From NCBI GenBank assembly GCA_002633005.1, contig NMRA01000068.1, positions 160,453 to 224,452 on the forward strand: a DNA stretch of 64,000 nucleotides, in the 5' to 3' direction. Position 1 is the stretch's first letter; each line of letters begins with the position of its first letter. A program made the translations under genes and the position numbers. Shown one piece after another: positions 31,501 to 58,044 of the stretch. The DNA is from Phoronis australis (taxonomy: Eukaryota > Animalia > Phoronida). A model generated the notes under the pieces. That model was not told where the DNA came from, ran no database searches, and saw nothing but the letters and a program-made list of their open reading frames with translations.

Positions 31501-34500
31501 AATTCAAACGTTTTCAATCTACAAAGTGGGCACTTTTGCCGTCTTTCCGGGGAATCTTGAAGTTAGGAGGGCAAATATTGCCCATTTGGGACACACTCTG
31601 ACCTTGACTAAGATTTTTCACTGTCCTAAATTGGAAAACTTTTCCTGTAACCTTAAAAAGATACTGGCAGCATTCATACTAAAAAACTACACTACCACAA
31701 AATTATGCCCTGGAATATTCTACTTGCAACTTCAATGCAATGCTTTTATCATTACCGATAACTAAGACCAATACTTACCACCTCAGTGAAGTTAAAATCA
31801 TCATTGAAATCTTCATGCTTTCTAGTATTAGCACGTTTCTTCTTTCGTTTTACTGGCAACGGCTGGAAAGATAGTAGACCAGTTAGCTAACAATGAATGA
31901 CTTGTCGTCATTCATACAGTGTAAGGCACCCGGACACTTGCAGGATTAAGCAATGCACATAGCACGGAAATCATTTTTTTGGGATTGAGTCAGAGTGAAA
32001 TGCATGAACTGTGCGGGAGTGAACGCTAAATCGCAGAATTTTGAAGTTACGTTAAAAATTTGGCACACATTGATTTGTGAGTCAAGCGTGTATTGTTCGT
32101 GAACAAGTCATGAGGTGTGCCGTCAATGCTCATCACTTCGCGTCATGGTATCAATGTTCACATCCAGGCCCTGATAAAGGCATGCACACTACACAGCATT
32201 TTGTGTGTAACAACATGCCACTCTGCTCTATTTCTGTGGCAAACAGTGCCGACATTATTTACAAAAAGTGCGCAGATACAACGTAAACACGAACCCTATG
32301 AACTGGCACATATGGCCACAACAAACAGCGGTGCCAGTGCATGCCAAACATTGTGCAAGCATCAGGATGCCTCTATTACAACCTACTCTTTCCCAGTGCT
32401 TTTCATTTATGAACAGCTAAGGAAGCAACATTAAGACACTCCGATTAGCTGATGCCCAGAAATGCACCAGAATACAGCTCTATCTATTGAGAAATGCACT
32501 TGCGGCATGCTACTGACCAACAACAAGATTGAGGTTAAACTAAAGAACTGAGTACAGGTTCATGCTTCTAACAATGTAATAAGGCATCAAACAACATAAC
32601 AAAACAGCTCACAAAACTACAGTGAAAAATCACCCTGACAAGTCTTGAACCCATGACCTCTTTCTTCAAAGCAATCGGCCAAAGATCAATTGCCCTTAGG
32701 GGGCACCGAACATTCATATGTTACATCATCCAAAATTTCTACTTTTCAAATCCCCCCCTCCCCGGTGCAGGTTGCTGCCAACCGCTGCTAATTTAAGCTT
32801 TCAGTGCAGTGATAGACTGAAGATTAGTTCCACCCTATCACTTTATTAATCTCGACCGTATGTTCACAAGTCAACTCAAACAGAACGTCAGATGTAATGT
32901 CTGTGCTATGCTCCAGAGGAGGCAGTGTGGCCTGGTTGATAAGTGCCCACTTTCTCATTACTCGAAGTCGTAGGTTCAAGTCCCACCAGGTCACACTGCT
33001 AAACCCTTGAGCCAGGTTTCTAGCTCCTCAGCTCGGTTTTAACCATATATTAATAAAGCATAAAACTATTTCCAGGTGATCAGTGCAATGGGCCCACATG
33101 CGAGGCCTGCGCACGTCTGGTACAATGTGTATCAGACAGCCTGCAATTATTTTTTTTATATGCTCCAGCCAGTGAAGCGAAGCCTTGATGTATGATGAAC
33201 TTTTAAGACACTTGGAGCAACTGTTAATTCAATAATCTGCTGTCTTTATAGCTAGCTCTCTGTTGACTAACACTGTAACTGACAATTCTTTTTACAGCAA
33301 CTCGACTACAATTTAACCGTAAATTTCAACTCTTAACTGTCACTAATCTGTCACGATCTGTGTATGTGTCTAATACTCATAAACGCTCTCTGTTGGATAG
33401 TCGACACGTCCCAATAGAGTTTATCCCTGACAACTTAGGTGAGGAGGGGTTTGCATTAATTATATGTAATCCCGAGTTGGCGGATGTCTCGTGTATGGAA
33501 AACTGTTTTCAAATCTCCATAGATAGGGATGATCAAACCCCTTGTGTTGCGAGAGTATTGTCGATAGTTAAGGATACTTTGATTGCAAGCAGAGGGAGGA
33601 CACAAATCTGACTTTCTTATTTGACTGGCTAGATAATGGTGTTGAACCTTCACAATTCCGCTTATTTATCGCCAGCGCTACGGCCAAAACCTATTGGCTC
33701 AATAGGGAGCGGTTTGTTGTGTCTAATAACTTATTATATTGGAAGGCTACAGATGTGGAAAATACTCTAAAATTAGCAGATATTATAAAGCATGGTCATG
33801 ACTTACCCTCAGCAGGTCATCATTGACCGTACCAAAGCAAAGTTAAAAAATAAGTATTATTGGCGTGGTGTGGCCACTAGTGTTAAATCTTATATTGAAA
33901 CATGCCGGCTGTAATTTAAATAAGCAAGGTAGAGGCCGCCATGGTAAGTTTCCCTTAACCACATTTCATGAAGGGCTACCCATGGAACGTGTCCATCAAG
34001 ATTTCTTGGGTCCACTTCCTGTATCATATCAGGGCAACGAGTATATCCTCATGATGATAGACCAGTTTACCAAGTGGGTGGAGTGTGTAGCCCTCCCGTC
34101 GCAGATGGCAGAGGTCACGGTGAACACTGCAGTGGGCCAGTTCTTTTGTAGACTTGGGTTACCATTGCAAGTGTTTACCGATCAGGGACAAAATTTTGAA
34201 AGTCACGTGTTGCGTTACATCTGTTCCCTTCTAAAAATTCAGAAAACAAGAACGACTGCATATAGGCCCTCTTCAAATGGACAATGTGAGCATTTCAATC
34301 GAACCCTGATGGATGCAATACGTTGTTATGTCAGTCGTTTCCAAACTGATTGGGATATGTATTTACCCCAGATCGCTGGTGTTATCCGTTCTTGTGTTAA
34401 TCGTTACACTGGCTTTACAGCTAATAAAATGATGCTGGGTCGGGAAATAATTCAGCCAGTAGACCTCATGTATCTACCGCCCTTACAGGATGCTGAGGAC

Positions 34501-37500
34501 CCAATAGGTTATGTAAACCGGCTCAGTAAAGCGATTACTCAGACTCACGAGATAGCTAGAGGAACATTGCAGACTACCCAAGCTATTATGAAACGTGATT
34601 ACGATGTGTCTATGGTCAGACGTTCATATAAAGTTGGAGATTTAGTCTATGTCCTTGATTCAGCTACTGTCAAGGGGAAGTGTAAGAAACTATTACCCCC
34701 TTGGAAAGGGCCGGCCATTGTTCTCGAGGTCAATACTCATCATCTTTTCCGAATTAGACACAAGAATTTTGTGTCGGTAGTCAATCATGACCGTCTAAAA
34801 CTCTGTAAGGATAGGTTTCGAGACCTGCCAATCTGGCTTAAGAGAATGATCCAGGTAAATTCCACAGTGAACCCGGATAGCCTAGCAGAAGGCACTGAAG
34901 TATACTGTTTTTGTAGGAGACCTGATCATGGCGGGTCAATGATTGCTTGTGACGCATGTGATGAGTGGTATCATGGGGAATGTGTAAGCATTACCACTGA
35001 TGACGCACTGCACATTGACAGGTACATCTGTCCTAGTTGTGAATAACATTCACTTTGCAATATTTCAGATGTTTCGATGTACAAATGTACGACTGAAGAC
35101 AAATCCGGACTTGCCTTGCATTACGGATGTCCCAAGTGAGCGGGAGGACTCTACGCAGCCACCGCCTCAACCAAGAGAGCAAGACCAAACCCCGGTGCAA
35201 GAGGTGTCCACCGTAGCAGTAAATACGGGGGAATCGGACATCCACGAGTCAGTTTTAGACGACGACCCGATCGTAACTGTCACACCCTCACGCCCTATTA
35301 CTGTAAATGTGCCCCTGTCAACCCCCGCAGATTTTCTGGCCAGTCCCCCATCCCATATGATGGTAGATTCTGCGGTAGTCTCAACAGGTTCCCCAACTAC
35401 GCCGCTGGCTTTGATTGGAGAGTCTATTTGGGCCCTTCCCGAATACTCCCACGGAGTGCAGATGGCAGAAGTTTTATTACAGCCCACTGACCAGTATCAG
35501 TGTCCCCTGTGTCCTTTTACCGTTCCCCTCGGTGAAGATGAACATCTATGTAAACATATTTTCACTCGTCATCTTCCACCGTTATTTTCGACTAATCAGG
35601 CTGATGTGGTTGCCAGCCCTCAGCTTCATCGAGAGCGATACGAGTCTCTAGCTTATCTTTTTTCCTTGTTGGAGGGACGTAGCATGAAGGACTCGCTGGA
35701 TCCGCTGGATCTTGCGGGGCCTGAGCCAGCTGCCACGGGTACTACCCCTTGATCAGATGGCGAAGTCAGTTATGACTACCACATTTGACTGGGACCGAGT
35801 TCATAGTTTAACTTTAACACCCAGACTCAACTCGCCAGCCGCTTGCTTCCACTGGTATGTGATCACTCTACTGCTCCAGAAATTACCAGAGAGTGACCGT
35901 GCCCGATGGTTTCTGAGTGCCCATAGTGTGAGGCTTCCTCAGTCCTTCCTTGACTCCTCGGCCAGAGAGGTCGGGCCCTCGTCCTTTACAACCCCCAGGC
36001 CTCAGACCTCTACTTTAGCCCTTTCACCCCCCAAAAGATCTCGGACCTATGCCCAGGTTGCCTCCTGCACTGAGGCTCAACCTGTAGGGAGGAGGGGAAT
36101 GTTGTAATCGGCAACATCATTGGCCCTTTGTTTTTCCTGTGGTGTCTTGTGATTGGTGTTCCACATATGTCCCTTAAATAAGTCATTGGCGCCACTGTCA
36201 GATGGGTTTTTTCATGTTTGTGCAGCTTGGCGTCAACTAGGACAGACTTAACCATTCTCAAAAGAAAGTACTCTTCTCGTGCCTAACTAGTGAACCTGTA
36301 GGAATACAACATACGCATAAGCGTCGCGTTTCAACGGCCATTGTTGTGAATGTTGGTTTGTATGGTCTCGTCTTTTGTGTTGTCTCGTGTGTTCGTGTTT
36401 GTTCGGGGATTTCCGTGAGTGGCCGGATGTTGGGAGATCTAGAATTAGCACGTGACTGGGGAATGATGGGAGCTCTGGTCCTGTGACATGCAGGACGTCT
36501 GCGTTTGGCTCGCAAGATTAAGTGTGTATTCAAGGTTCCATATGAGTAAAGGTAAGCTGCACGCGAACCTGTATTGAATTACAACATTTGGCGTAGTCGG
36601 CTACGTGCAGTTTCCACCTTTGCACTGAGTGGCAATTTAAATTTTCGCAAATTATTTTACTCTTGTCATTCGGTACCACCCGTGTCGTAACAGGTTGGTA
36701 ACTGAAAACGTGTGTTCAGTTGTTAAGTTTTTTCATCTCCGCCTGAATTAAATATTTGGTGGTCAGCTCTATGTCATATTTATTTTTTGTGTTATTTGGT
36801 ATTGTTTTCAAGTTCAGTCTTTTCAGACCTGCATTTAATTAGTGCCACAACCTTTGTGGTACCATAACATGGCGTCCAAGATTCTAATCAATTCTTGTGA
36901 CGCTACATCACTGTTAGACCTTCCGGGTATGACTACTGATGTTGCTGCTGCAGTTATCGACTTCAGGGCAGTATCAGCGATTACTCCGGATAATGTAACT
37001 AAAATACATTCTGCTTGGAAGCCGACCAAAATGATGCAGAAACATATAGACTTCTCCATCCCGTCTGGTCTGCCGGAAGATTTGGTGAAAGTTGCAGAAG
37101 TGGTCGACAATTATGGTAAGCAAACACCGTCGAAAATTGTTTCAGCTCCTGCTTTTTTTCCAAAATTAGCAGCTAAGTTTACCCCGTCCAAGGCCAGTAT
37201 TGCTAGTGGTGGTGCTTATGAGAAAACAACCTCATCGCCGCATTTTAGCACATGGTCTAAGCCGTAGGGGTCATCAACTTATTGCCTACAACGTGCTCCA
37301 CGCAACCTAACTTTCAGTGGCAAACTAAGCACATGGGAAAATTTCTTGTGGAAGTTTGAAAATGTAGCCAAGGATAACTGTTGGTCTAGTCAGAAGTGTC
37401 GCACTGAATTAGGTATGTGCTTAGAAGGAGATGCTTCTCGTTGGTTCGCCAACCATATTAGGTCTTTTCCAGATGCTTCTTACAAGCAAATCATCAAAGA

Positions 37501-40500
37501 TATGATATATCGCTTTGGTGCAAATATCGAGTGTAATGAAGTACACCAGCTTAGATTCCAGTCAGCCAAACAAGCTCCTGATGAGTTGCTTGAGCAACGG
37601 GCTGACCGTTTAACCAGCTTATTCTTATTAGCTTTTCCAGATGCTAGGGACTCTGACAAAGCTCAGGCTGTCCTTCGTTTCTGTTTGGGTTTGAGGGATA
37701 AAGATGTTGCTCAGTGGACAATAAATAGTAAATCGGAGTCAGTCATAGAGGCTTTGAATGCCACACGATGGTTTTCAACCACCAAAGACCTTATGACACC
37801 GTCAAGACCGACCAAAGCTGTTTCTTTCTGTAGAGAAACCTTTTCAGACGAAGGTGAGGAAGAAGTTTCGGTTCGTCAGTTAAGTAAGAAACCCACTCTT
37901 AAGTTCACTCCTTGTGGCTCTTTAGAGTCTCGTTTAGATGTTCTTGAGGGTAGGTGTAATGACTTAGATGCATCAGTTTCTTTCCTTAAGACTGATAACG
38001 CTAAGCTTCATAAGAAGATAGACGGGTTGAAATCTGACCTGTCTGAATCTCATGCTGAAGTATCAAGCAATTTTAGTAAGTTGTTTGCAATGCTACAGAC
38101 ACAGTCGCGAAGCAACCTTCTCCGCCTTCACCAAGAGCTTCACCAGATTCATCTCCTGGAAGATCCTCTAATCTTCCCAGGTGTTTCAGGTGCGGTAAGT
38201 TGGGGCATTACCAGTCGAGTTGTAGGAGTTCTCCAGTGGCGGCTCGACGTATGTTCCTCAGTGACGGAGATTTAAACAAGTAGGGACTGGGGGACAAGGT
38301 CTAACCCCAGTTCGTACCAAGTCCAAAGACCTCCCTGATAGCAAGAAAATAGTTGGTCTGTTGGGTTATATGAAGAAACACATGCGTAATTCTTCAATTG
38401 CAGTTCAGTTACTAGTTCAGTCGTTAAAACTAAGACTGCTGAATCGTTTCCTCAGACCGCTAATGAGTTCTCTGTGACTTCAGTTGAAGATGATAACATG
38501 GTATCTAATCCAGTCCATAGCATTGAAGTTCCAGACTTATCAGCTGTTAATATTAGATCTGACTCATTAATCATTCAGACTGTTGCAGGTACTGTTTCAC
38601 AGAATGTCCCTCCAACTCCAAGGGGGATGCCTCAACCTGAAATCATTCCAGATGCGACAATGGGTGGGAACATCTGTGTCTCTCCTGTAGTTTCAGTTGG
38701 TGAGTCCGTTCCAGAGACCGTAAAAATTAAGAAGAGTGCATCGGGAAGTATGTACTACTTACCTGTAACAATTAATGCTACCTTAATCGATGCTGTTATC
38801 GACTGTGGAGCAGATAGTACCATTATCTCTCATCGATTGTTTAAGCTGCTAGAAGGTGTGTCTTTCTCACATTACATTGATGTGCATACGGCTGGTGAAG
38901 ACCTCTCTATGAAAGGTTTTCGGACACATCCTGTCACTGTGTCGATCAGTGACCAGAGTTACAAATCTTCGATAGTTGTGGCTAACATTAATGATGATTG
39001 TCTTCTTAGTCTTGATTTAATGAAGCAGTTAAATGTAGTAATTGATATGAAGTCGGATTCCATAACGTTCGCTAATGAGACGTTAGTTATGAATTATGGA
39101 GTTCCTTCCAAGTACCAGCCCACAGTTTGACTTTCCAAAAGTATTATTATTCCTGCAAATACAGTTAAGCGTGTGGAGTGCATTGATGTTCCAATTTGTG
39201 TTCCAACAGTAATATTTGAACCAAGCTTTACCGTGGATCCTAGGGTAATGATACCTCGTTCACTACTTAACACCGTTACCTCCCCAGTTTTATACATGTT
39301 TAATTCTTCGGAGCATAGTGTCAGGTCGAAAACTGGTTCAACATTGGGCTATTTAGATTGCATAGAAGAGTGTGAAGTGGACTCATTGGATCTGGCATCT
39401 GATGGAAGAAGCAGTACAGTCGTCAAGCAATTGTCTGCCGGTTCCAGTATGACTTCTGAAGGTACAAGGCCATTGGTGGCATTACCCGAAAAGGTAGACG
39501 ATTTATATAATAAGTCAAAAAATTTATTGACTGAAGCACAATCAAAGTTGCATCAGTTATTGCGAAATTATGCAGACGTTTTTGCAACGGACAACCTAGA
39601 TCTTGGTAACTTTACTGCAGTTGACCACGCGATTGACACAGGCGATGCTCAACCTATCAAAATGGCCATGCGACGGACACCAAGTTGTTTCGTGGCAGAA
39701 GAGGAGGGTCACCTTAACAAAATGCTTAAAGCTGGTGTCATTGTTCCTTCATCTAGTGAATGGGCCGCAACTCCTGTTCTGCTTCGTAAGAAAACAAGAC
39801 GGGTCAGTTCGTTACTGCATTGATTATAGGAAACTGAATGTCACTAGAAAAGATTCATGGCCTTTACCTCTCATTGATGAGTGTATTGACTTACTGTCTG
39901 GTAACAAGTGGTTCAGTAAGCTAGATGCCAATTCTGCATATTGGCAAGTTAAAATACATGAGGAAGACCGGAAAAAAAACGGCTTTTATAACCAAGTATG
40001 GGTTATTTGAGTTCAAATCCATGCCATTTGGACTCTGTGGTGCGCCTTCTACATTTTCAAGAGCAATGAGTTTAGTTCTTAGAGGTTTAAATTGGCACAC
40101 ATTTCTTGCATTCCTCGTTGATATCTTAGTACTGGGGTCAACCTTTGACGAGCACATTGCGAACCTGGAGGAAGTTTTTCAGAGATTCCGGAAGTTTCGA
40201 CTCAAATTGAAACCTAAAAAATGCCTCCTCTTCCAGCAACGGGTTGAGTTCTTAGGGAGATGGGTAGGACCATGTGGCTTGGAGATGGGGGATGAAAAAA
40301 AAAACATCGAAAAAGTTAAAAATTGGCCGGTTCCTCGTAGTAAGAAGCAATGTCAGAGCTTCCTTGGGTTTGCAAACTATCACAGGATCTTCATTAAAGA
40401 TTTTGCTGAGATTGCAGTTCCCTTATACAAAGTCACTGGAGCTTCTCTTTTCGTATGGTCAGATGAACAGCAGGTGGCATTTGACAAGTTGAAAGAAGCG

Positions 40501-43500
40501 CTAACATCACCTTCAGTTCTGACTTTGCCGAATTGCTCGGATGAATTTGTGCTAGATTGTGATGTGTCCGACCTGGCAATTGGAGCCAGTCTGTATCAGG
40601 TCTAAAATGGCATAGAACGCGTAATATCTTATGCTAGTTTTGCCCTGGTGGATGAGCATAAGCGTTATTGTACCACGTGTAAGGAATTGCTGGCTGTCGT
40701 TCGTTTTACACACCATTATAGGCACTATCTACTCGGATGACAATTTCGTGTTCGTACCGATCACAACAGCCTCACATGGTTAATGAACTTCAAATCCCCT
40801 AGTGGTCAAATTGCTCCTTGGCTATTGCAGCTACAATTTCCTGGGATGAAGATTGAATACCGTCCGGGCGCAAAACACGTGAACGCAGATGCGCTCTCGC
40901 GTATCCCTGTGGACACGTGAAACAATTATACCTTGGGTGTTCAGCCAAGCGATCCTTGTGGTGGTTGCAGTACGTGCTGGAAATCACATAACGACCAGCA
41001 CAAGTTTTCATCTGAGGTGAACGATTCAACGTCACTTGCATTCTTCCCCAAGGTAGACAAATGTGTTGGCACTAGGCAAGTGACTACGAATCCCAACTCC
41101 AACCCTAGAACAGTAACTAAGTCACTTTTTCCGTGTGACCTTGAAGAGACAGATTTGGCACTGTCCATTACAGCTTCAGATTGTGAGGATAATGTAAAGT
41201 TTGATCTTAAGCCTGATGGTTGTTTTATTTACAACAGTACAACACCTCTAAGTGTTCATTTGAATGTTTTGAATATTTCAGCTAAACAGGTTGCAGATCC
41301 TGATCTTTCTTTCATTATTAATTGGTTCAATAATAGTATAGTGCCATCTGATCATGATTTATTTCTAGCCAGCCCAGCTGCCAAGTTCTACTGGATTAAC
41401 AAAGACTGTTTTCAACGTCGGGATGATATTGTCTACTGGAAACGTCCAGAAGATAATAAGCTGTTAACAGTAGTTCCTGCTGATTTGAAAGGGGCTGTAC
41501 TAGAAATGTGTCATGTTATTCCTTCAGCAGCCCACCAAGGTATTGCTCGTACCAAACTCAAGATCAAGAGTAAGCACTTTTGGTATGGGTTGACCAAAGA
41601 TGTGCAGCTGTTCATCGCATCGTGTTCCGCATGTAACAAGAATAAGCAGGGAACAAGACATGGTCGGTCTCCTATGATTCGTTTTCATGCTGGAGCACCG
41701 ATGGAGCGGGTACACATCGACTTTCTTGGTCCACTACCTGCATCTCCACGTGGTAACCAACATGTGTTGATGATAGTGGATCAATTTACTAAGTGGGTGG
41801 AATGCATTCCCCTACCTTCTCAAACTACAGAAGTATCGGCTACAGCTGTCATTAATGAATTCTTTGCTCGTTTCGGATATCCCTTCCAGATTTTCTCTGA
41901 TCAAGGGAGAAATTTCGAAAGCAATTTATTCCGTGCTGAGTGTGAGCTTTTGCACATCCATAAGGCACATACAACTCCGTATAGACCCTCTGCAAATGGT
42001 CAAGTTGAGCGTTACAATAGAACCCTTACGGATGCGGTAAGATGCTATGTAACTTCCAGATGGATTGGGATCTATACATTCCTCAAATCGCTCACGCGAT
42101 CCGTTCATCAGTAAATCGCCATACAGGTTTGACACCAAATATGATGATGTTGGGTCGTGAGGTCACTCAGCCGGTAGATCTCATGTTTCCTCCACCGTCT
42201 GGTGCTGACAATGACTCTCCGTCAGGGTATGTAGTTAAACTTCGCGCGGCTATTTCAAAAGCACATGAAACTGCACGTAGTGTTCTACAAACTAGTCAAT
42301 CTTCCATGAAGAAAGATTATGACCCATCTGTTTTTAAACATGTTTTTAAGGCAGGCGATCTGGTGTTTATCTTAGACTCTGCTTCAACTAAGGGCGTGTG
42401 TAAAAAATTGTCGTCTCCCTGGAGGGGACCTGGTATTATTATTGAAGTTCTAACACCAGCTCTGTACAGAGTTCGTGTGAAGAATACTGTCTCAGTTATT
42501 CACCATGATCGTATTAAACTGTGTAAAACTCGTCATGCTGACCTACCTGCTTGGCTTCAGCGGATAATGAATGTAGTTAACCAGATTCCTAACACTGACG
42601 ATCAGTTGTATTGTGTGTGTCGTCAGCCTGACCATGGTGGCCTCATGATCCAGTGTGACTCTTGTGACGATTGGTTTCATGGGGAATGTGTTAGTGTTAC
42701 GGCTGATGATGCATGTGATATGGATGATTACTGGTGTCCTCGGTGCAAGCTCTAACTTTTCTTTTTGTTGCAGAAGTTGTGTTCTCTTGTACGGATGTCC
42801 GGCTAAAAACCAACATGGACCTTTCACGGGTGACCTTCTCCGAAGGGGTCCCATGACGTGCAACAGTCTTCTGCTGTGTCTGATAAGACACCTGCGTCTT
42901 CGGAACCTATGGATGCGAGTGATGCTTCTGGCACCCCTGCCGTGTCAGAGGATGTTACTCCATGTGATCATTCCAGTGATGTCTCATTAACGTCACCTGC
43001 TCCAGTTCACAAGAAACCAATCAAGCCAGTTCCTAAAAAAGGGAACCGTGAACGAGGAAAGTTCGCTTGTCCCCTCTGTGGTTTAGTCGCCACGGGTGAA
43101 ATTCTACGGGAGCACAGCTTGACAAACCACCTACCATCAGTGTTCAATGTTGACTCTGTTCAGCGCTTGTCATCTTCCACTCTTCAGTGTGCACGGTTTC
43201 AGGCACTGAAGTCCATTTTCTTGCAAATTGAGGGAAGGGAACTTCAGCTTTATGAAGATATTCTAGACCTTGCAGGCCTGGCAATGAGAAGCGTGCTCCA
43301 CGTTCCTCCTGTAACCATGGAAGACGAACTTCAAGTAACGATCTCCTGTAAAGTTCTGGGTGGCCTACACCTTCAGGCCCTTTTGTTCTCTGTGGGAGGT
43401 TGATCAACCTGAGTCTCTGCATGCACTGGTTCGTAGTGTTGCAGTTGATGGCGAGAGTCCCCGAGCCGAATCGCTCTGTGTGGGCATTGTCTTTTGACAA

Positions 43501-46500
43501 CGGACCATGTGGCATTCCACCTGCACCTATGCCATCCAGCTTTCAGAGGCTCATAGTTTCGTCGATATCGTTGGGACCTCTCCAGTTGGTACCTCCTCAA
43601 CCAGTGTCATCGTCGGCATCTTCAACCCCCACCTTGGAAGGGGCAATCGACTCGCATTTTTATATGTATCGTCTAACATCGGCTTATCGGTCCAAAGGTA
43701 ACGTCTGCGGAAGCTGTATGCTGTCCGTTGCAGATCTTCTAGCAACCAAGCTCCACAGAGTACCTTACCTTCTAGTCAAGCTGTTGGGCGGTGTTCTTGT
43801 ATTTTGTGACCCAACCGAGTACTCCTGTCATCCACTCAAGGAGTACCTAAAAGCTCTTCCCCGGGGGTTCAAGGCAGTCATTGGTGTGCATCCGAAACAG
43901 GAATCCAACTTTTCGGGTAATGCTAGGATTACCTTGTTCCGTCTCTTGCGGGAATCTGAAGTTGCCGGTCTGGGGGAGATCCGGTTTGAACAAGCCTTGG
44001 GAAAGGAAAAGCATCAGCGCCGGTTTGTGGAAGGCCTGATTTCGGAGTTCGCCAGCCTTGGACGTCGTCATAAGAGTGTTCGCGACAAGGTGGTGGTTCT
44101 TCACATCAGGGCAGCGTCACCATGCTCAAATTATGAGTGGGGTTTCCACACTGCTTTCGACATTCTTAGAGAGCAGCTATCTAGATTCCAAAGGATCCAT
44201 CTTCACACCTTCACTGATGATTCCGTGGCAGTGAGTAACTTCCACCGTGAGTTCCCGAACTGCTACTTCGGGTTCTCTGGTATTTGTAACACATTTACTC
44301 GCTGGCAAGTCCAAGCGTTACGGGAGGTGCCCGAAGACCGTCTTCTGTTGGAGACTGATTCGCCTCACCTGTCCTTGCGCGAGCGACCTAACTATCCACA
44401 GTTTATTGGAGAAGTTGCTGAAGTAGCTGCCAAACATCGTGACGTTTCGGTGGCTCAGATCCTCCAGCAGACCACTCGGAACGCTCAGCGCCTCTACAGA
44501 CTTTAGATCTGGGATTAGTAGCATAGTAGTGTATTTACATTAAATTTATATTTCGTTTCAGTGAAAATTATTAGACTGTTCCAGGGATGCTCGTTCACGG
44601 GTAGGTCTGTTCAGCTTCTGTTATATGATCATTAAAAAAAAGAAATTTTGAGAATCCTACTATGCTACCTTGTTGTTTATTGTTGTTCGTTACTATATGT
44701 TTTGTGTTTGTTACTTTTTCATATGGTAGTTTATTTTTCTAAATAGTATATTTTTCTAGTAAACTTTATAACATCTTTTTCTAGTCAACAGATATTTCAT
44801 TTTTTTGTAAATTGTGACCAGTATTTTTCAAATAGCCCCAGTCACGTACTTCTGTGAAGAATTTAGTTTTTTTAATGTAAATCCGGCCATTTAAAATTTA
44901 GTTCATAGTATTTTTCCTAGGGTAATTCATAATCTGTTATTTCTAGTATGTTAGATGTTGGTCAATTCTTCTTGTTTCTTCATTTAAGGGGGGGGGGGTA
45001 AAGGTTGAGTAGTATGTCTTTTTTCAGTAAGGTTTTTGTAATATTTCTCTATTTAGGGAGGGGAGGAATGTTGTGAATGTTGGTTTGTACGGTATCGTCT
45101 TTTGTGTTGTCTCGTGTGTTCGTGTTTGTTCGGGGATTTCCGTGAGTGGCCAGATGTTGGGAGATCTAGAATTAGCACGCGACTGGGGAGCTCCGTCTTC
45201 GTCTGGTCCTGCGACATGCAGGACGTCTGCGTTTGGCTCGCAAGATTAAGTGTGTATTCAAGCTTCCATATGAGTAAAGGTAAGCTGCACGCAAACCTGT
45301 ATTGAATTACAACACCATTTTCTTGTTAACTGCTCATCCAAGTTTTCTGATTTTTGCACCATTTGATTTCTCACACCAAGGACTTTTCAAAAATGTATGA
45401 CACATGGGTATTGTAAAAAAAATTAAAAAACGTCCTTCCTACTAGTTAGTGAACCTGTAGTAATGCAACACGCGCAGGAATAATGTTGTAATCGGCAACA
45501 TCATTGGCCCTTTGTTTTTCCTGTGGCGTCTTGTGATTGGTCTGTTTTTGTGTGTTCCCCGTATGTTCCCTATATAAGTCGTTGGCGCCACTGTCAGATG
45601 TTTTTTTTTTCAAGAACCGGCAAGACAAGTCATCCATGGTTGTCCCGCTTGGCGTCAACTGACCGACTTATCTCTTCATAGAAGAAAGCACTCTTGTGCC
45701 TAACTAGTGAACCTGTAGGAATACAACATTCAGACAAGTCATCCATGGTTGTCCCGCTTGGCATCAACTGACCGACTTATTTCTTCATAGAAGTAAGTAC
45801 TCTTGTGAACCTGTAGGAATACAACATTTGGCGTAGTCGGCACTAGTTAGGAGTATCATAAGAGTATTTGACCGACTAGTTCAGACGGCTTTTACCTGTC
45901 CAGGGCTTTTTCTTTCGTCCGGGGGGGAAAGTTGGAGAATTTAGTTGGTGCCGTGCTAACAGGTGGTTAGTACGGTAGCCAAGGGGTTCTTGGTCTTTAG
46001 GTAGAGTTGGTTTTAGGTTGTTTGGGCCTTATTTTTGGGTTTTTGAGGTTTATTTTTGGGTTTTTGGTATTTTTGGGTTTAGTTGCTGGTTCGAAGTGGG
46101 TGTGGTTCCCTTTTGACTTAAGTCACGTGGTAGGCAGTGTTTTGGTTAAAAACACCGATTCATTCCCTTACCTTTAGCCCTTCTGTACCGGATATATATT
46201 GGCCGTTGATAGTTAACCATGTCAGTAGGTTTCAAAATTCCTATTAACTACTGCCGTGAGTCAGACTTGTTAGATTTGCCGGGAGTTGACGAAGATATCG
46301 TCCTGCAAATAGTTGACTTCCGGGAGAGGTGTCCTATCAGTCGTCACAATATTTACCAGATATCTGACAATTGGATAGTGACCAGCGTGGTGACTGACCG
46401 GGTGGATTATTCCTTAACCCCCAGTTCAGGTTCCCGAAACTCTGATTTGCCGGCGGGGTTACCTCAAGTGGCTGAATAGGTCCCCTAGTCCTGAATTGGG

Positions 46501-49500: not shown

Positions 49501-52500
49501 GGGTACCAGTTTTGAGGACCACCGGTCTAATCTTACAGGCATTCTTGCTCGTTTTCAGGAGTTCGGCCCGAGATTGAAACCCAGAAAGTGTGCCCTGTTC
49601 CAAAAGAAAGTAGAATTTCTGGGTAGGACGGTGGGTCCGGAAGGGTTAGAGATGTGAAATGACAACATTAAGAAAGTCCAAGAATGGCCTATTCCCTACA
49701 GTAAGAAACAGTGTCAAAGTTTCTTGGGTTTCGCAAATTACCATAGGCTATTCATCAAAGATTTTGCAAAATTAGCTGTATCTCTTTATGAGATTACAGG
49801 GTCGAAGAAAACCTTTCAGTGGGACGATGCACAACAGAATGCTTTCGATCAATTAAAGGTAGCTCTAACATCACCACCTGTTTTAGCCTTACCGAACAAA
49901 AATGACGAATTTATTCTTGATTGTGACGTCTCTGATAAGGCTATTGGCTGTTGTCTTTCCCAAGTCCAGAACGGATTGGAGCGAGTTATCTCGTACTCCA
50001 GCTTCGCTTTAGTGGACGAACAAAAACGTTATTGTACTACTCGAAAGGAGCTGCTGGCTGTTGTACGATTTACACACCAGTTCAGACATTACCTCTTGGG
50101 TAGGAAATTTAAAGTACGGACGGATCACAGTAGTTTGAGATGGCTGTTAAACTTTAAATCTCCTTCGGGACAATTAGCTCGTTGGATATTACAGTTACAG
50201 CAGTTTTCGGGTATGGAAATAATATACCGTCCCGGAGTTAAACATATCAATGCTGATGCTCTGTCACGTATTCCTTCGTCCTCCTGCCCTGCTTACAAGC
50301 TAGGGGTAGAACTCAAAGACCTTCCTTGTGGGGGTTGTCCCACTTGTTGCAAATCTCATAATGAATGGTATAATTTCGTACAGGAAGTTGATGACACTCT
50401 TCCTCTTGCACAACGCCCCAAGGCAGCCATGGCTGACAAAAGTACCAGTACCCGTGCGCGATCTGTGTATGTGTCCGATACGCACAAACACTCGCTATCA
50501 AATACGCTGTGCTAACAACGTCATTGCGGAGGATAGTGGCTGCCACCATATATACACAAGCAGTACGCGGATGGAGTTTAAGGCTATACAACGTGCCCTA
50601 ACCAAGCTGTCACTCCTAGACCTGGAGAATCACACCATTATCTTTGCCACCGATTCCATGGCAGTGTTGATGAAAGTTCAATCTGGAAACCTCCCAGCCA
50701 ACTGGGGTGTCTTCCGATCACGCCACCCTCATCATGTGGTGATCTGGTCTTTCGTACTTGGCCACGCCGGTGTCTTGATTAATGAGTGTGCAGATTACCT
50801 CGCTGGCTCATGCACCACCAACCAACCCCTCTACTTATATTCGGCTGACGTTAAGCTGCTGGCTCGCAAACGCAACCTCGAGCAGACTGCATCCCAGCTG
50901 GCTGAGTTCAATGATGGCAGCCGCCTGCTCGAAGCTGGTATTATTTATGGCCATGCTGCGAAGAGTCACAAGAAGGGCCGTGCCCGAGTGCTGTCTAATC
51001 AAATGCTTACAGGCAACGTCAGCCCTGGAGTTTTGCGCCTTCTGCTGTCACGGGGATGGTCTGGGGAGGGGATTAATGCACCAGCATATCCCCAATGATC
51101 CTGTCCGGAACAGGTATTATTACAGGTATTATTACAAACACTCGCTGTTGGATAGTCAAAACGTCCCAGAAGAGTTTATCCCTGACAACTTTGGAGAGGA
51201 GGGGTTTGCATTAACTATATGTAATCCCGAGTTGACGGATGTCCGTTGTATGGAAGACTGTTTTCTAATCTCCATAGATAGGGATGATCGAAACCCTTGT
51301 TTTGCGAGAGCATTGTCGATAGAGGATGAAACAGACTTTGACCGCCAACAGAGAGAGGACACAAAACTGACTTTCCCATTTGACTGGTTAGATAATGGTG
51401 TTGAACCTTCACAATTCCGCTTGTTTATCGCCAGCGCTACGGCCAAAAACTATTGGCTCAATAGGGAGTGGTTTGTTGTGTCGAATAATTTATTATATTG
51501 GAAGGCTCCAGATGAGGAAGATATTCTAAAATTAGTAGTGCCGGAGTCTTGCAAATCAGATATTATAAAGCAATGTCATGACTTACCCTACGCAGGTCAC
51601 CAGGGAATTGACCGTACCAAAGCGAAGTTGAAAGCTAAGTATTATTGGTGTGGTATCGCCGCGAGTGTAAAATCTTATATTGAAACATGTGCTGGATGTA
51701 ATTTAAATAAACAAGGTATAGGCCGCCATGGTAAGTTTCCCTTAATTACATTCCATGCAGGGGTGCCCATGGAACGCGTCCATTTAGATTTCCTGGGTCC
51801 ACTCCCTGTATCCGATCAGGGCAATGAATATATCCTCATGATGGTAGACCAGTTCACCAAGTGGGTGGAATGTGTAGCCCTCCCGTCGCAGATGGCAGAG
51901 GCCACGGCGAACGCTGCAGTGGGCCAGTTCTACCCTCAGTCCTTCCTGGACTCCTCGTCCAGAGAGGTCGGGCCATCGTCCTTTACAACCCCCAGGCCTC
52001 AGACCTCTACTTTAGCCCCTTCACCCCCCAAAAGATCTTGGACCTATGCCCAGGTTGCCTCCTGCACTGAGGCTCAATCTATACCACTCCATCCTGTACC
52101 GCCCAAGTCCCCAGTGGAGCGGAAACAGGTTCGTCCAAAGCGGTTGGCACCGGCAACCACCTCCTCGGCGAAATTGCCCTCTTTGTATGGTCCACCGTCA
52201 ACCGCCAACCTGCAGCCTGCTGCATCAGCCCCAAAACCAGAGACAGTCGATTCGCATTTCCACCTAGATCAGCTGACCTTTGCTTGCCAACGTTTTTCCC
52301 CTGACTTGGCAGGCCGGCTGCTTACCATTCCTGAAATCACTAATATGACGGCAATGCTCCCTTGTCCCTCAAAAAATCCCGTCCATTTAACAGGGGGCAT
52401 AGCGGTATTTTGTGATCCTATTCATTACAAGTTTGTGGAGAAATCCACTGAGGCGTTCCGTCGGGCTAGAAGGCTGCAATTGGCATCCATCCAAAAAACA

Positions 52501-55500
52501 CCAAGTCTTACAATCCGGCCATGGAGAAGGAAATTTTCAGGCTCCCTCAGTTGCCCAATGTTGTTGCACTAGGTGAATTGGTATTGGAAGAAGGCCACGG
52601 TAGCGCTGAAGTACAGCAGCAAGTGGTCGTGTCGCTGCTGCGCGCTCTTGCCCGCTTCCAGACGGTTCACGGCACTCGAGTGCTTGTAATGCACTTTCGC
52701 GCCCGGGAGTCTACTTCACCCTTTCACTCTGGTCATCAGTACATGAAACGGTTGCTGAGTGACGTCTTGCCCAGAGCCCAACCAATCCAACTCCATTGTT
52801 TTTCTAGTAACCCTCAGGAGGTGCGATCATGGATGAAGGCTTTCCCTAATGTCTATTTCGGTTTTGCTGCCATTGCTTGCCATTTTTCCTCCCCCCAATC
52901 CAAAGCTCTGGCGGCCGTGCCCCTCAATCGGCTTCTATTGGAGACCGATTCCTTCCATTTAGCAACGTCCTCTCGACCTATGGCCCCATATTTCATCGGG
53001 GAAGTGGCCTGGAAGATAGCACGCCTGCGTCACTGTAATGCTGACTATACTTGTTGGAGCACTCGGCCAAGAACGCTGGTGTTTTATACAGATTGCAAGT
53101 CCGGAAAGGGTCTCTAGTGAGTATTTTTACCACTAGGTGTCTGCTCTCCAGTCCGGGGGGGGTGGGTGGTTCCCCATAAGGTTCCTATTTATTATTCATT
53201 TCATGTGTTCAAGGGTGCTGGCTCTTTGAACTTCTATATTATTTGATGGTACTTCTGTTCTTAACCCATATGTATTATGCTCTCATTCTGGGGGAACTGT
53301 CCTTGTGCTAGTAACATAATGGAGTTCCTCCTTTTTTTGGAGGGGGGAGAAGGGTCAAATTTTTCGGGCATTTTTTGATAAATTGGCAATGATGTTTCCC
53401 GGGTGGGTCCCACGCTTTTTAGGGAGGAGGGGAATGTTGTAATCGGCAACATCATTGGCCCTTTGTTTTTCCTGTGGCGTCTTGTGATTGGTCTGGCTTT
53501 GTGTGTTCCCCATATGTCCCATATATAAGTCGTTGGCGCCACTGTCGGATGAGTTTTTTTTCAAGAACCGGCAAGTCGTCCATGGTTGTCCCGCTTGGTG
53601 TCAACTGACAGACTTATTCCTTCATAAAAGTAAGTACTCTTGTGCCTAACTAGTGAACCTGTTGGAATACACATTCGTTCTCAATGAATTGCGACAAATG
53701 CTGAAGCCAATGTTCAGCTCACCACAGAGAATTCCGAAGTCATGAAACAATGTCAAAAGACCTTTAAAATAAAGAATAATATGTCTAACGTGGGTGCTGT
53801 GTCTTATGACCGGCTACAGTTTACATGGTAGGTGTCACAATGCACCATGTAGCCTAGGGTTCCATAAAATTGCGTGAAGCTGAAAAAACGACAAAGTAGA
53901 AACAGGCTCTCTTTTATTATAATAACTTGTCCAATCAAAAAGAATAATTGCATTTTGGAAACTCAGCGAGACATATTTAAAGAGAAAGTCAACGTTTTTT
54001 ATCAACAAAAAATAAATTTTAATTTCCACCATGTTTACTGAGTGAAGCCAAATCTCAAATCATTTACGAGACCTCATTGGCGTGCTTCTTGAAAAAGAAG
54101 TTTCAAGAGATATTTTAGTGAATTTGTGATTTATAATTTGTAATACACAAAAAACGGCAATAGCATTATTTTTTTAAACCTTTGCCTTATCTGAAATTGG
54201 CTGTGTGGCACTGCTTTTCAAGAAGCGCAGTGGAATTTTTTTGGAATCATTTACGAGACGTGCATAAATTCAACAATAGTGCGTTGATAAGGAAGATGTG
54301 GAAACTCAAATAACTCTACAAAGCTATGGTGATGTGTGAAATCATTGCAGTTTTGAAAGTTTTTGGTGAACATTTATGAAAAAATTGGCATTTGAAATCG
54401 GTTGCTTATCATTTACGAGCCTTCATTTACGGGACGACAATTTTATAATTAGGTCAAGTCCAATTAATTTCACCTACTATTGGCATGTGTGACATGAATA
54501 TAGGTCAATTTTTCAAGAACGAGCACGTGCGCTTCAGCTGACATCGATACTGTCTGAAAATATTCGCTAAAGAAGTCAACAGAACTTTTGGGTAAGTTTT
54601 CAGTAATGTCACTTTTATAATTCACATGTTTTAGGGTCGTTATTAACGTACTAGAAGAAGTGACGAAATACTTCCTGTGAAACATACTTTGATTAGAATT
54701 TGCTTGACATTGGTCGTACTAAATTCTTGTAAAAAATTGTCACGTAAATGATATCCAGTGTCCCGTAAGTGATTTGTTCTATTTTCACTCAAATTCATTT
54801 CATCTTTAAGTAGTAATTAAATTATTATCTGTGACGATACATAACTTAATGCAGCTGACCTTGCAAAAATAATGACATCTTTTATTTTATTTAATACCTA
54901 TTAATTAGAGTTTGTCACTTTGGTTTGCGTTGCGGAGTGCCAAAATACAAGTCTCAGCGGATGAAGGAATAGTCTAGAGAGCCCGTAAAAAGGCACAACT
55001 CGGTCACGAATGGCTTAGAAGAGAAAGTGAACGAGTTACGGGTATTTCGTACCAGTGTCAAAACTGACAGAAGTACAAAAAGTCGGAAGACAAGAAACCA
55101 ACAGAGTGTTAGCTGAGACCAAAGAAGTCAATATATAAGTGAAGCAAGGCAATTTTGTTTGTAAATATGAAGGTCGCCGATATCTCGGACAAGTCGTGGA
55201 CACAGATGATGTCGACTAGCCTGTGGAGGTCAACTTCTTGCAGCCGTCCATTAAAATGAGTGGATTGTTTATGTGGCCAGCCGAAGGAAACAAGATTTGG
55301 CTACGGAAAGATGACATCCTGAATCTCGTCCTGGACCTCGCACCAACTGGGAAAGCTGCAGAGTGTTCAAGGCGTCAGATGAATTGCTGGACTACCTTGA
55401 TTTTTCCTAATGACGTTTAAAGCCCAGTTAAAATTGCCGTTAAAAGGTTTTAACCTTAACAGTCTTTAGCCCAATTGTCAACGCTTAAGTTGTCATTTAC

Positions 55501-58044
55501 GGGACGTGACATGTGACGTGTTAGATGTCAGGCACAATTGTATAGCAAATGTAAAAATGTTGAATGCAAACTTTTGGATTTACCTGTACATGTACATGTG
55601 AGTTGTGTTACAAATGTCTCCACGTGCCTTCTTGCATCAGACAGTTGAATTGTAATCTGTTGTCATTTTTATTACGTAATCAGTTACATCAACTCATACA
55701 AGTGACAACAAATAGCCTTCAATACGTATACTATCCGTCATTATTTCATACCAGTTTTTCCTGAAGTGTAGGTGGTCAGAAATAATTTCCACCGACACAA
55801 TATCACTTGCCCCTCACTTACGGGACATGTTGTGTCATTCACGAGACTTCTTTAAATTCACTTAAGGATTTTTTAGTCATCGCATTACCGGATATTGGAT
55901 ACCAGTTTTTGAATGATCGATAGTCGCTAATGAAAATTAAGACAAGTGTAAACACCACGGCACCTGTTTTTATAAAACAGTTATAAACAAACGACGTGTT
56001 TTGAAAAAGTAAAAATTTAGTTCAAAAGTTAAATTTCTATATGTCCACGAAAAATACACAAGAAAGTAGAAAATACTAAGAGCTGTTTTTCTCGATTTTA
56101 ACAAGCATGCTGATTAATAAAATTGCACAATGAGATTGTTCGTTGTCAGTGATAACAAACTAGACCGAAAATTAACCCAACGAACGCGTTTTTATGTTTT
56201 CAAATAAATTATCCAGTTTCTCTAATAAAACAACAAAATAACTCTATAACTGCACTTGCTGAGCTGAGGAAATTGTTCAAAACTTATCATTCATACATTA
56301 AACTAAGAAAAAATAATACCTTAGCTCCAGATGAAGATACTTGAAAATCGAGTGTCTCAGGTGTCGAATTGTCGCGATTCATTGAGAATGGCTCTACAAC
56401 AAAACGTTGTCCTCCCTACTAATAGGGAGGACAATCAAAAAGTAGGTCACGGTGCTCCATATCTGCCTCCGTGTAAAACCCACGTCGGTAAATTACCCGA
56501 TTTCAGACTTCAAAGTTAACTATAAGACAATTTTGTGTTATAACTCGTTACCTTAGTCTTTATTTGTAAGTTTGTAATCTTTTTGTATCAAATTAGCGCT
56601 GATAAATCATTTTCTGTAAGCATTTTTTAGCGCACGATTTTCCGCCATGCGATCAACTTTCGAAAAAGTACCTCTTGTTCCTCCTATCCAAAAGAACACT
56701 ATACTCTCAAATACAAACATGAAATTTGGACAGGATGTAGTTTAGATGCGTGCGCATCTCCTCAAGTTGTTTTCTTGAAGTCAAGGCCAAGTTTTCATGG
56801 CGAGTTTTCGATCGTCCGGAAGGCCTAATTTTGGTCGGTCGGGAGATTGATGTTTTTCCAGTTGCGCAATATGCCCCCCCGATTTTTAGATGAGGAATTT
56901 ATCACTCTTGTAATTGGTAATTATTTAAATTTCAGAAATTCTGTCAAACTGCTGCGCATTGGCACTTTTCAAACAGCAGTCGTTAGTTCACTAAGTCGCC
57001 ACATGTCAGCGCCACCATCGGCTACGTTGAAGTTCAATGGCATCGCAACTTCACCGTTCGAAATAAAGTTATTACAAAGTTTTTGTTGCGTAAATGATGA
57101 AATCCTTTATGTTAAGAGTGATTTGTTTTCCCAAATGGTCTTTTGTCTACTTTCTGATGTTTTTTGCCATGATACGATCTAATAGTACATGGGTGGCACC
57201 CAGCACTGAAAAAAGTGGGGGAGCTATAGCCTCCCCCAGCCCCCTGTCACTGTCAGGCAATGATGTGTTGCCCATGTAGTAGTATTCAGGGGCAGATCTA
57301 GGATTTTTAGATAGGAGGGGAGGGCAGGGCAGAATATTACGCAGGATTTTATCCGTAAGATATTTGCACCCTCAAACTGCCAAATGAAATATGGGAGTTT
57401 TAGGGGGGCCACGGGCCAGGCCCCCTTGCCCCCCCCCAAATCCACCAATGTGATCTTGTGATTTGATGTGAAATTTCCTCCTAGCTCAGATGTATTTATT
57501 TCTGAGCTGATGTGGTGTCTTTGCTCTTTACCTTTTAAGCTGTGTAATCCATTGTTTTCATCAAACATGATGAGCCTGTTCTATATGCTATAACAACACA
57601 CTTAAACAGCAATATCTCTGTAGAAATCGACCCAAATTTCATATAATACACACCACCATGTTTGTCTCAATTAGACGAATCTTTTTATATGCAGCACATG
57701 TATACATTCTTTTATTTTTTACGAAATTATGTAAAAAGGCAGATATTTTACGCATAATCGTCGCGTTTCAACGGTCATTTTCTCGTCAACCGCTCATCCA
57801 ATTTTTCTGATTTTTGCACCATTTCATTTCTCACACCAAGGGCTTTTCAAAAATGTATGACACATGGATATTGTAAAAAAATTTAAAAAGCGTTGTCCTC
57901 CCTACTACTAACTAGTGAACTTGTAGTAATACAACACGCGCATGAATAACTTGGTCATACCTCAGCATCACTGTCAGAACTTTCTGAAAGAACTACAACG
58001 TCTTCGTCCTCTCCAATTGTACCAATATAATCCAGCCGTGACAT
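7598..58044 (-). CDS. DDX27: DEAD-box RNA helicase DDX27/DRS1 (18 coding exons visible, about 90 aa missing)
   Basis: Exons in transcription order: 57961-58044 ([15 protein letters not shown]), 31779-31862, 31172-31291 (TTLDEKIAK), 29786-29888, 29216-29271, 27437-27535 ([12 protein letters not shown]), 26007-26112 (PTPIQ..CAVTGSG), 22051-22224 (GKTAAF..PTRELA), 21479-21629 ([14 protein letters not shown]), 20847-20946 (QTMLFSAT), 19894-20035, 17819-17955 ([10 protein letters not shown]), [gap], 14228-14434, 12806-12870, 12137-12248, 9747-9843, 8855-8917 (FKSKSR), 7598-7613 (YKRK*). All GT-AG and phase-compatible except across the gap. Confidence 0.95.
9138..9461. repeat. 24-bp minisatellite
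   Basis: Unit ACATCTGATCACTGCCCGTCCAGA, about 13 copies, intronic. Confidence 0.92.
10452..11908. mobile_element. Tc1/mariner(pogo)-like non-autonomous element with a HIRAN-like remnant
   Basis: TIRs CCATATTTGCCGTAACAACCGCCCA / TGGGCGGTTATTACGGCGAATACGG with TA TSD; a related inverted segment lies at about 2340-2810. Confidence 0.75.
13081..13606. mobile_element. hAT-like non-autonomous element inserted in a SINE
   Basis: TIR CAGGGCTTGGAAT / ATTCCAAGCCTTG; 6-bp TSD AGTACT; empty site seen in the SINE copy near 13885. Confidence 0.75.
13778..13912 (+). mobile_element. tRNA-derived SINE
   Basis: A-box-like TAGCTCAGTGGTA and B-box-like GGTTCAATTCC, followed by a body shared with copies at about 12915-12992 (-) and 12994-13080 (+). 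Confidence 0.7.
14403..14577 (-). repeat. About 57-62-bp tandem repeat spanning a DDX27 splice acceptor
   Basis: Three copies of ACTGATTTTGT..TCTGAA..AGTG(T/C)AAGCT; the first overlaps exon 14228-14434. Confidence 0.8.
14940..15409 (+). mobile_element. 3' end of a CR1/L2-like LINE
   Basis: [31 protein letters not shown] resembles the ORF2 C-terminus, followed by an AT-rich UTR, AATAAA and an A run. Confidence 0.6.
18640..19341. repeat. 49-bp minisatellite
   Basis: Unit TACACAGGTTGTTAGTGGGTAGTGGCAGAACTAAGGACCAACACAAGTA, about 14 copies, intronic. Confidence 0.93.
22547..23845. mobile_element. hAT-like non-autonomous element (5-bp TSD)
   Basis: Imperfect TIR CAATGCTTCCCCTG / CAGGGGAAACCCTG; flanks CGCAA / CACAA; contains a 70-bp MITE at 23069-23138. 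Confidence 0.6.
23910..25993. mobile_element. hAT-like non-autonomous element (5-bp TSD)
   Basis: TIR CAGTGTTCTCCACA / TGTGGAGAACACAG; CACAA on both sides; subterminal AAACAGGACGC repeats at 25888-25960. Confidence 0.7.
32918..33155 (+). mobile_element. tRNA-derived SINE (second family)
   Basis: GTGGCCTGGTTG..GGTTCAAGTCCC head, CCCTTGAGC core, T-rich tail; related inverted copy at about 29300-29490. Confidence 0.6.
33865..35046 (+). pseudogene. Integrase (rve core, SH3-like C-terminus) with C-terminal PHD finger, copy A
   Basis: [34 protein letters not shown]; WKGP; [35 protein letters not shown]. Confidence 0.92.
35069..36079 (+). pseudogene. ORF3 N-terminal part (C2H2 finger + unknown conserved domain), copy A
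   Basis: ATG directly after a tttcag acceptor; CPLC..HIFTRH finger; DLAG and CFHWYV blocks match ORF3 of copy B; frameshift near 35715; TatD part deleted. Confidence 0.8.
36869..38283 (+). pseudogene. gag of copy B (HhH-like N-terminus, capsid, coiled coil, CCHC knuckle)
   Basis: [26 protein letters not shown]; [22 protein letters not shown]; [14 protein letters not shown] in a shifted frame; premature TAG at 37265. Confidence 0.88.
38271..42755 (+). pseudogene. pol of copy B: protease, RT, RNase H, integrase, PHD finger
   Basis: IDCGAD protease; [28 protein letters not shown] (catalytic DD mutated); LDCDVSD RNase H; CH..AHQG..CSAC; rve core; [33 protein letters not shown]; several stops and frameshifts. 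Confidence 0.95.
42774..44506 (+). pseudogene. ORF3 of copy B: C2H2 finger + unknown domain + TatD-family deoxyribonuclease
   Basis: TatD motifs in order: [53 protein letters not shown]; upstream CPLCG..HSLTNH; frameshifts present. Confidence 0.92.
46219..47793 (+). pseudogene. gag of copy C (HhH-like N-terminus, RS-rich linker, capsid, CCHC knuckle)
   Basis: [29 protein letters not shown]; [13 protein letters not shown]; [14 protein letters not shown]; internal stops. Confidence 0.88.
47766..51930 (+). pseudogene. pol of copy C (protease, RT, RNase H, N-terminal integrase)
   Basis: LDSGAD; YCIDYRALN; FLDNILV (DD mutated); LDCDVSD..RTDHSSL; [15 protein letters not shown]; truncated by a deletion after AAVGQF. 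Confidence 0.93.
50497..51133 (+). mobile_element. 5'-truncated non-LTR retrotransposon with C-terminal RNase H (Ingi/I-group-like), nested in pol of copy C
   Basis: 13-bp TSD ACAAACACTCGCT (50484-50496, 51134-51146); RNase HI motifs [32 protein letters not shown]; short repeated tail CAGGTATTATT(A); copy A shows the empty site. Confidence 0.88.
51934..53117 (+). pseudogene. ORF3 C-terminal TatD-family nuclease of copy C
   Basis: [23 protein letters not shown] (shifted frame), [34 protein letters not shown]. Confidence 0.9.
53676..56394. mobile_element. Degenerate DNA transposon with TIRs (Sola-like GAG..CTC terminus, tentative)
   Basis: Inverted repeat TTCTCAATGAATTGCGACAA (53678) / TTGTCGCGATTCATTGAGAATGGCTC (to 56394); many internal CATTTACG(A/G)GAC motifs; coding remnant [23 protein letters not shown] near 55150-55350. 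Confidence 0.65.
57188..57276. mobile_element. Tiny CATGGG..CCCATG MITE
   Basis: 5-bp TSD TAGTA; the sister copy 23069-23138 has TSD ATAAA; another MITE-like element (CAGGGGCAGATCTAGG..) follows at about 57287-57450. Confidence 0.7.

Follow-up and report, generated by a model that had tools for sequence, protein, structure and literature searches.

A TatD-domain third gene of Ty3/gypsy retrotransposons in Phoronis australis is likely expressed from a spliced message

Retrotransposons bounded by long terminal repeats (LTRs) may carry a third open reading frame (ORF3) behind gag and pol, and such frames are described as typically expressed from spliced messages (PMC5408684). In errantivirus and idefix-type elements, the third frame is env, likewise read from a spliced message (bioRxiv 10.1101/2023.08.03.551782; PMC13097621), and accounts of errantiviruses have its start supplied by a Gag peptide, by a short peptide from upstream or by a split AUG (bioRxiv 10.1101/2023.08.03.551782). 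The bdelloid elements Juno and Vesta are reported to have an enzyme in place of env, in some cases a 3'-5' exonuclease (PMC5408684). The closest precedent for the case described here, Cer1 CERV of C. elegans, is a non-env ORF3 spliced to Gag exons (PMC10309623). Here, we analyze 64,000 nucleotides of Phoronis australis DNA (the window; assembly GCA_002633005.1, contig NMRA01000068.1, positions 160,453 to 224,452 of the forward strand), which contain a decayed Ty3/gypsy LTR retrotransposon, family 2 (36342-45314), with a TatD domain at the end of its ORF3. An earlier note on this DNA had proposed that ORF3 is translated from an env-like spliced message whose ATG lies in the LTR. Our results indicate that the TatD third gene is likely expressed from a spliced subgenomic RNA and that family 2 likely takes its start codon from gag, not from the LTR; we lean, with moderate confidence, toward a Gag-ORF3 fusion that starts in gag. 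The relevant features of family 2, in window positions, are as follows.

36342..36586, + strand: 5' LTR, 245 nt, TG...CA ends, 93.1% identical to 45069-45314
36542..36551, + strand: LTR ATG with a 10-nt candidate coding exon, in poor context (C at -3, A at +4)
36552..36557, + strand: LTR donor motif AAG/GTAAGC, phase 1, tied 2nd to 3rd among the 694 GTs of the element
36589..36601, + strand: primer-binding site, with an identical motif 3' of a family-1 LTR at 45829
36869..37115, + strand: gag start, ATG plus 82 codons with a helix-hairpin-helix (HhH)-like motif, 247 nt, phase 1; likely the 5'-most coding exon of the ORF3 message
37116..37121, + strand: gag-internal donor, phase 1, 7th of the element's 694 GTs and 2nd among the 97 of its first kilobase
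37268..42755, + strand: rest of gag, protease, reverse transcriptase (RT), RNase H, integrase and a C-terminal PHD finger, interrupted by stops and frameshifts
42752..42773, + strand: CAG acceptor, ranked first of 566 AGs, preceded by a pyrimidine tract and by a branch-point-like CTAAC that overlaps the pol stop
42774..44506, + strand: ORF3, with conserved start motif, low-complexity stretch, Cys/His (zinc-finger-like) region and TatD domain (Pfam TatD_DNase, E 1.8e-27)
45069..45314, + strand: 3' LTR, repeating the ATG (45270) and the donor motif (45280)

The spliced ORF3 message is supported by four lines of evidence, namely the rank of the acceptor, its position in all elements that can be compared, a junction-like contig and a rise in read depth over ORF3 of a second family in the window (family 1). 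The acceptor that the earlier note had placed directly past the pol stop, behind CTAAC and a pyrimidine tract, is present there and outscores every other AG of the element (splice sites were scored with simple weight matrices of textbook-type frequencies). Its AG ends at 42773, 18 nt past the pol stop TAA (42753-42755). A CAG acceptor with a pyrimidine-rich lead follows the pol stop by 18 to 58 nt in all 4 elements whose pol/ORF3 boundary is intact (family 2, element A of family 1, and metagenome loci L002 and L020), where it ranks 1 of 566, 16 of 188, 21 of 417 and 6 of 594 AGs. The metagenome scan comprised 80 loci, four of which were inspected further: L002 and L020 (2 of the 80) show the integrase-PHD-TatD layout, both without the 5' end of the element, and L001 and L028 have a long TatD match and no pol. 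The pol stop TAA sits within a branch-point-like motif in both family 2 (42752-42756) and L002 (2282-2286), and within a weaker match in family 1 (35043-35047).

The acceptor is followed by an in-frame ATG after 0, 2 and 3 nt in family 1, L002 and L020, respectively; in family 2, the first one is at 42815, in strong context. Yet the exon read from 42774 in phase 1 resembles the family-1 ORF3 start even ahead of that codon, as had been claimed (in family 1, the AG ends at 35068 and the ATG is at 35069): 9 of the 12 residues encoded before 42815 are shared with family 1, 8 of these 9 through different codons, so that the stretch is likely translated and needs an upstream ATG. On this sequence comparison, family 2 likely takes its ORF3 start codon from an upstream exon; the need for such a codon was rightly recognized earlier, with gag a more likely source than the LTR. 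The ORF3-start motif recurs at residues 105-116 of ORF3 in L002, L020, P0133 and P0137 (2 of 71 long relatives, against 0.005 expected in shuffles), with only P0133 unseen when the pattern was written. A motif search with the cysteine-bearing exon start returned a single match, a short bacterial-like protein, and scans of viral contigs gave no match. About 100 ORF3 residues precede the shared motif in L002 (2311-2630) and L020 (5294-5600) and are absent from both window families; similar stretches are seen by eye in P0002, P0003 and P0068.

Two donors could provide the upstream codon. The coordinates proposed for the LTR candidate are all correct (ATG at 36542, donor GT at 36552, coding exon of 10 nt, phase 1), and this donor is the strongest in the first kilobase and aligns with the donor position of family 1. 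Nevertheless, in shuffled LTRs an in-frame ATG falls within 12 nt of the donor in 5.7% and within 30 nt in 14% of cases, and the context of the ATG is poor, which makes the in-frame LTR ATG the weaker evidence. The second donor, at 37116 within gag and also in phase 1, was not part of the earlier note; the gag ATG at 36869 has a strong context (A at -3, G at +4).

Reads and contigs were taken from four runs under the same species label (X1 to X4), with 18-19% of X1 to X3 read and X4 considered RNA by guess only; loose read ends were examined where stronger, the two read comparisons having 25 and 167 weaker ones besides. The sole junction-like sequence, a contig of X4 (record 4; 201 nt, depth 43.6) from a sister copy, uses the gag donor. 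It aligns to gag at 37062-37113 with 7 differences, and its 97 loose letters supply 37114-37115 and then, by eye and without gaps, match 21 of 28 letters of the exon start after 42773 (binomial p 1.7e-7 at that place, about 0.02 over 128,000 places). The join leads from GT at 37116 to AG at 42773, in frame with the gag ATG. The same seven differences (37084-37105) recur in X1 reads that continue unspliced beyond the gag donor, which indicates that the joined and unjoined forms come from one subfamily. Moreover, in 3 out of 3 read sets family-1 ORF3 has a higher sense depth than integrase, at 3.8-4.2 against 0.6-1.5 in X1, 6.3-6.9 against 0-0.8 in X2 and 7.9-10.6 against 0-1.4 in X3, as a subgenomic RNA could produce. 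The spliced, env-like message is therefore supported, through the acceptor, the contig and the rise in reads. As to the LTR ATG as its start, junctions from the LTR to ORF3 were sought in all four runs, and no joint 36551 to 42774 was found, a weak negative given a depth over 42732-43517 below 1 in X1 to X3 and 0 in X4.

Several observations weigh against a start in gag. The junction is a single contig of a run that is RNA by guess, with no raw-read joint; 30 of its loose letters are visible, one short of the 31-letter bridging rule, and the ORF3 side did not align at 85%. By weight matrix, the gag donor scores 4.97 versus 7.09 for the LTR donor, and donor scoring found nothing comparable to 37116 in family-1 gag. 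The site is mostly read through, with sense reads at 37105/37121 numbering 17/15 in X1 and 4/5 in X2, and it is not covered in X3. The higher depth over ORF3 of family 1, whose donor was not seen in the reads, could instead stem from 3' bias or deleted copies. Finally, no HhH-TatD fusion occurs among 196 proteins searched, a weak negative because most were probably called from unspliced DNA.

The LTR donor may have a different use altogether. In X3, 4 reads leave the LTR at 36552 and 3 at 36554, with the sense depth falling from 17 to 10, and they run into at least two unrelated sequences that by eye resemble neither ORF3 start. The donor is thus probably used in transcripts, toward sequence other than ORF3, and it is close to an even prospect that it is used chiefly by solo or 3' LTRs for splicing into neighboring host sequence, the in-frame ATG being incidental to ORF3. 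The same behavior has been described for MaLR LTRs (PMC5538554) and for Springer (PMC13097621), in the latter from a donor 43 nt behind the LTR. However, the 7 reads belong to one run, the group of three may represent a truncated or diverged LTR copy, and such splicing would neither preclude use of the LTR donor for ORF3 nor conflict with the Gag-ORF3 fusion. That LTR donor 36552 is joined to 42773, alone or as a second isoform, with ORF3 read from the LTR ATG and gaining three extra codons, we judge unlikely. Its appeal is that the donor is the best of its kilobase, in phase, present in both LTRs and colinear with that of family 1; in reads 10-20% diverged, none of the differences listed falls within 36539-36563; X3 reads do depart at this site; and there are parallels in the env of ZAM and Beagle, described as beginning with short peptides upstream of gag (bioRxiv 10.1101/2023.08.03.551782), and in the AUG plus donor known within MaLR LTRs (PMC5538554). 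This must be set against the missing LTR-to-ORF3 joint in the four runs (at a depth below 1 over the ORF3 start), the X3 tails unlike both ORF3 starts, the steady depth across the donor in X1 (12/12) and X2 (18/18), the poor ATG context with a 6-14% chance of such an ATG, and the absence of the donor from 2 of 4 family-1 LTR segments. In the loose tail shared by four X3 reads, agreement is 0.68, and an ORF3 start could be hidden there. As the sole form, the LTR-ATG message is unlikely; as an additional isoform alongside the gag form, it is a possibility to be entertained, although we do not favor it. We rejected a leader intron between donor 36552 and a CAG at 36826, which has no read joint and would set the LTR ATG out of the gag frame.

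It appears quite improbable that there is no splicing at all, in which case ORF3 would be translated from its internal ATG (42815) on RNA that is full-length or starts internally, and the X4 contig would reflect a DNA deletion or an assembly chimera. The strong context of 42815 speaks for such a reading, as does the existence of transcribed deleted copies, such as those with a joint at 38738-41033 in 4 out of 4 runs. But the deletion joints observed are non-canonical; the X4 join, by contrast, is bounded by GT and AG and leaves the frame intact. In addition, the codons ahead of 42815 are conserved as protein, and acceptors are found in all four elements. The 38738-41033 joint itself (21, 4 and 6 reads plus one contig) was dismissed as splicing because of its CA..GT ends, and this internally deleted family-2 copy is probably a transcribed non-autonomous element.

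Under the Gag-ORF3 fusion that we prefer, the transcript would begin in the 5' LTR and lose an intron of 5,658 nt (37116-42773). Its predicted product would combine 82 Gag residues bearing a HhH DNA-binding-like motif with the ORF3 start motif, the zinc-finger-like region and TatD. Family 1, L002 and L020, with an ATG 0 to 3 nt past the acceptor, would need only a non-coding first exon, whereas family 2, having no acceptor-proximal ATG of its own, would borrow one from upstream. Predicted from its family, the TatD product may be a nucleic-acid-binding 3' exonuclease with RNA of the element, RNA:DNA hybrids or the ends of cDNA as substrates, and would be an accessory protein rather than a coat protein. 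The Gag piece matches Pfam HHH_3 with an E of 0.0018, under the curated cut-off, and is homologous to family 1 at 36%; its nearest Atlas clusters carry HHH_3 (top score 0.91, 149 shared features), which is a lead only.

Pfam PF01026 matches the window ORF3s with 96.8 and 69.8 bits, against a curated cut-off of 27, and L002 and L020 with 130.1 and 76.3 bits; TatD is the sole Pfam family in the ORF3 pieces, with no envelope family, F-type glycoproteins included. The metal-binding and catalytic motifs of TatD (HxH, ExG, H, H, ETD) are each kept in 114-133 of 136 element-type relatives; family 1 retains them all, and the window copy of family 2 lacks the second His of HxH. A search at E up to 1e-10 yielded 400 relatives, not all element-type; the named TatD relatives come from sea urchins and molluscs; the Cys/His region of ORF3 is common to relatives. 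In a quick tree of 83 rows, the element-type domains form a group of their own (54 rows, SH-aLRT 98), apart from 26 short proteins that we label bacterial-like and from three others. A shared motif may point to kinship with TATDN2. The ORF3 domain has the TatD fold and motifs in common with E. coli YcfH (PDB 1yix) and human TATDN2, and the latter is reported to degrade the RNA strand of R-loops (PMC10711561).

Set against the described systems, the strategy of a spliced third gene is already known from env and Cer1 CERV, whereas gypsy elements with a TatD nuclease in place of env, and the wiring of this cargo, seem undescribed: we found no paper on TatD in LTR or gypsy retrotransposons in a literature search that covered sources other than subscription journals and Repbase. 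Cer1 CERV is described as having five exons and exporting genomic RNA, with no nuclease homology reported in that account (PMC10309623), as opposed to the single proposed intron and the TatD domain here. Errantiviruses carry env as cargo, and since ORF3 of the window elements is not an envelope protein, the element is not an errantivirus. The ORF3s of Juno and Vesta have DEDDy and GDSL folds, with no mention of TatD in the main text and no junction mapping in the account available (PMC5408684). A donor inside the LTR, as in family 2, is described for MaLR/ERVL LTRs (PMC5538554) and foamy viruses (PMC5294762), and MaLR LTRs may also bear a functional AUG near their 3' end; these are, however, retroviral lineages, and the MaLR AUG is described for fusions with host genes, not for an ORF3 of their own (PMC5538554). 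In Springer, by contrast, the donor lies behind the LTR (PMC13097621).

Family 2 displays the hallmarks of Ty3/gypsy elements, with two LTRs ending in TG...CA, a CCAT target-site duplication on both sides, a primer-binding site and a polypurine tract, and its gene order by Pfam matches to window ORFs is gag, protease, RT, RNase H and integrase. The RNase H match covers only the first 48 profile positions in family 2 and is full in family 1; pol of family 2 terminates with the PHD finger. We take the primer-binding site (36589-36601) to be of tRNA-Ser type. Every gene of the window copy is disrupted by a stop or frameshift; the joined LTR-ORF3 frame runs into a stop codon at 42854, and ORF3 is split into three pieces, which marks this copy as decayed. 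Presumably, the hexamer directly 5' of the LTR donor (36545-36550) resembles a variant poly(A) signal, and the LTR ATG/donor motif may thus serve another purpose in the 3' LTR. The element is inserted within another small repeat (36312-36341, 45315-45483; third copy at 57776-57949, 88.5%), and reads with the empty insertion site are present.

On either side lies a piece of family 1 (elements A and B), within a cluster of decayed Ty3/gypsy elements in AT-rich DNA.

35046..35752, + strand: element A, pol stop, CAG acceptor (AG ends 35068) and ORF3 start, its own ATG at 35069 being exon position 1
45793..45798 (also 53630), + strand: family-1 LTR donor motif GTAAGT, not in the other two family-1 LTR segments
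52230..53117, + strand: element B, with its TatD domain split over two frames (52470-53114: Pfam TatD_DNase, E 3.2e-19)

Element A retains the end of pol and the ORF3 start without TatD, element B retains TatD without the pol/ORF3 boundary, and the two have 150 nt in common at 95% identity. The GTAAGT reported in two family-1 LTR segments is there, yet alignment finds the donor GT intact in only 2 of the 4 segments. The family-1 LTR ATG (phase 0; 45745, 53582) was rejected as an ORF3 start because of an in-frame TGA at codon 9. In the family-1 5' LTR, the 3' part is duplicated in tandem ahead of the primer-binding site (45626-45834). In element B, integrase jumps to the middle of ORF3 at 51931-51934, and reads of X1 and X2 show this joint as well (on element A, 34144 to 35937). 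Pol of element B contains an insert of about 640 nt (50497-51133), likely a truncated LINE, in which one frame resembles RNase H (Pfam E 3e-5); the insert has a short repeated tail and a flanking 13-nt duplication (50484-50496, 51134-51146). Elsewhere in the window there are tandem arrays with 57-, 24- and 49-nt units and one tRNA-Ala gene (6514-6802, 9168-9453, 18549-19430 and 13781-13855).

A broader and more tentative reading, which as one joint claim falls on the doubtful side, is that the third gene of a widespread invertebrate group of Ty3/gypsy elements encodes an active TatD nuclease and is expressed by splicing, and that family 2, having lost its own start and the N-terminal part, rebuilt them by alternative donors, the gag donor giving a nucleic-acid-binding HhH-TatD fusion and the LTR donor a short form. 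If so, the element would switch the targeting of its nuclease by splicing. The Gag-HhH-TatD fusion alone, if true, would be relevant to the question why exonucleases are captured by LTR elements, which the description of the DEDDy ORF3s of rotifers leaves open (PMC5408684). It would also constitute a defined accessory enzyme whose true N-terminus would be missed by annotation of genomic ORFs.

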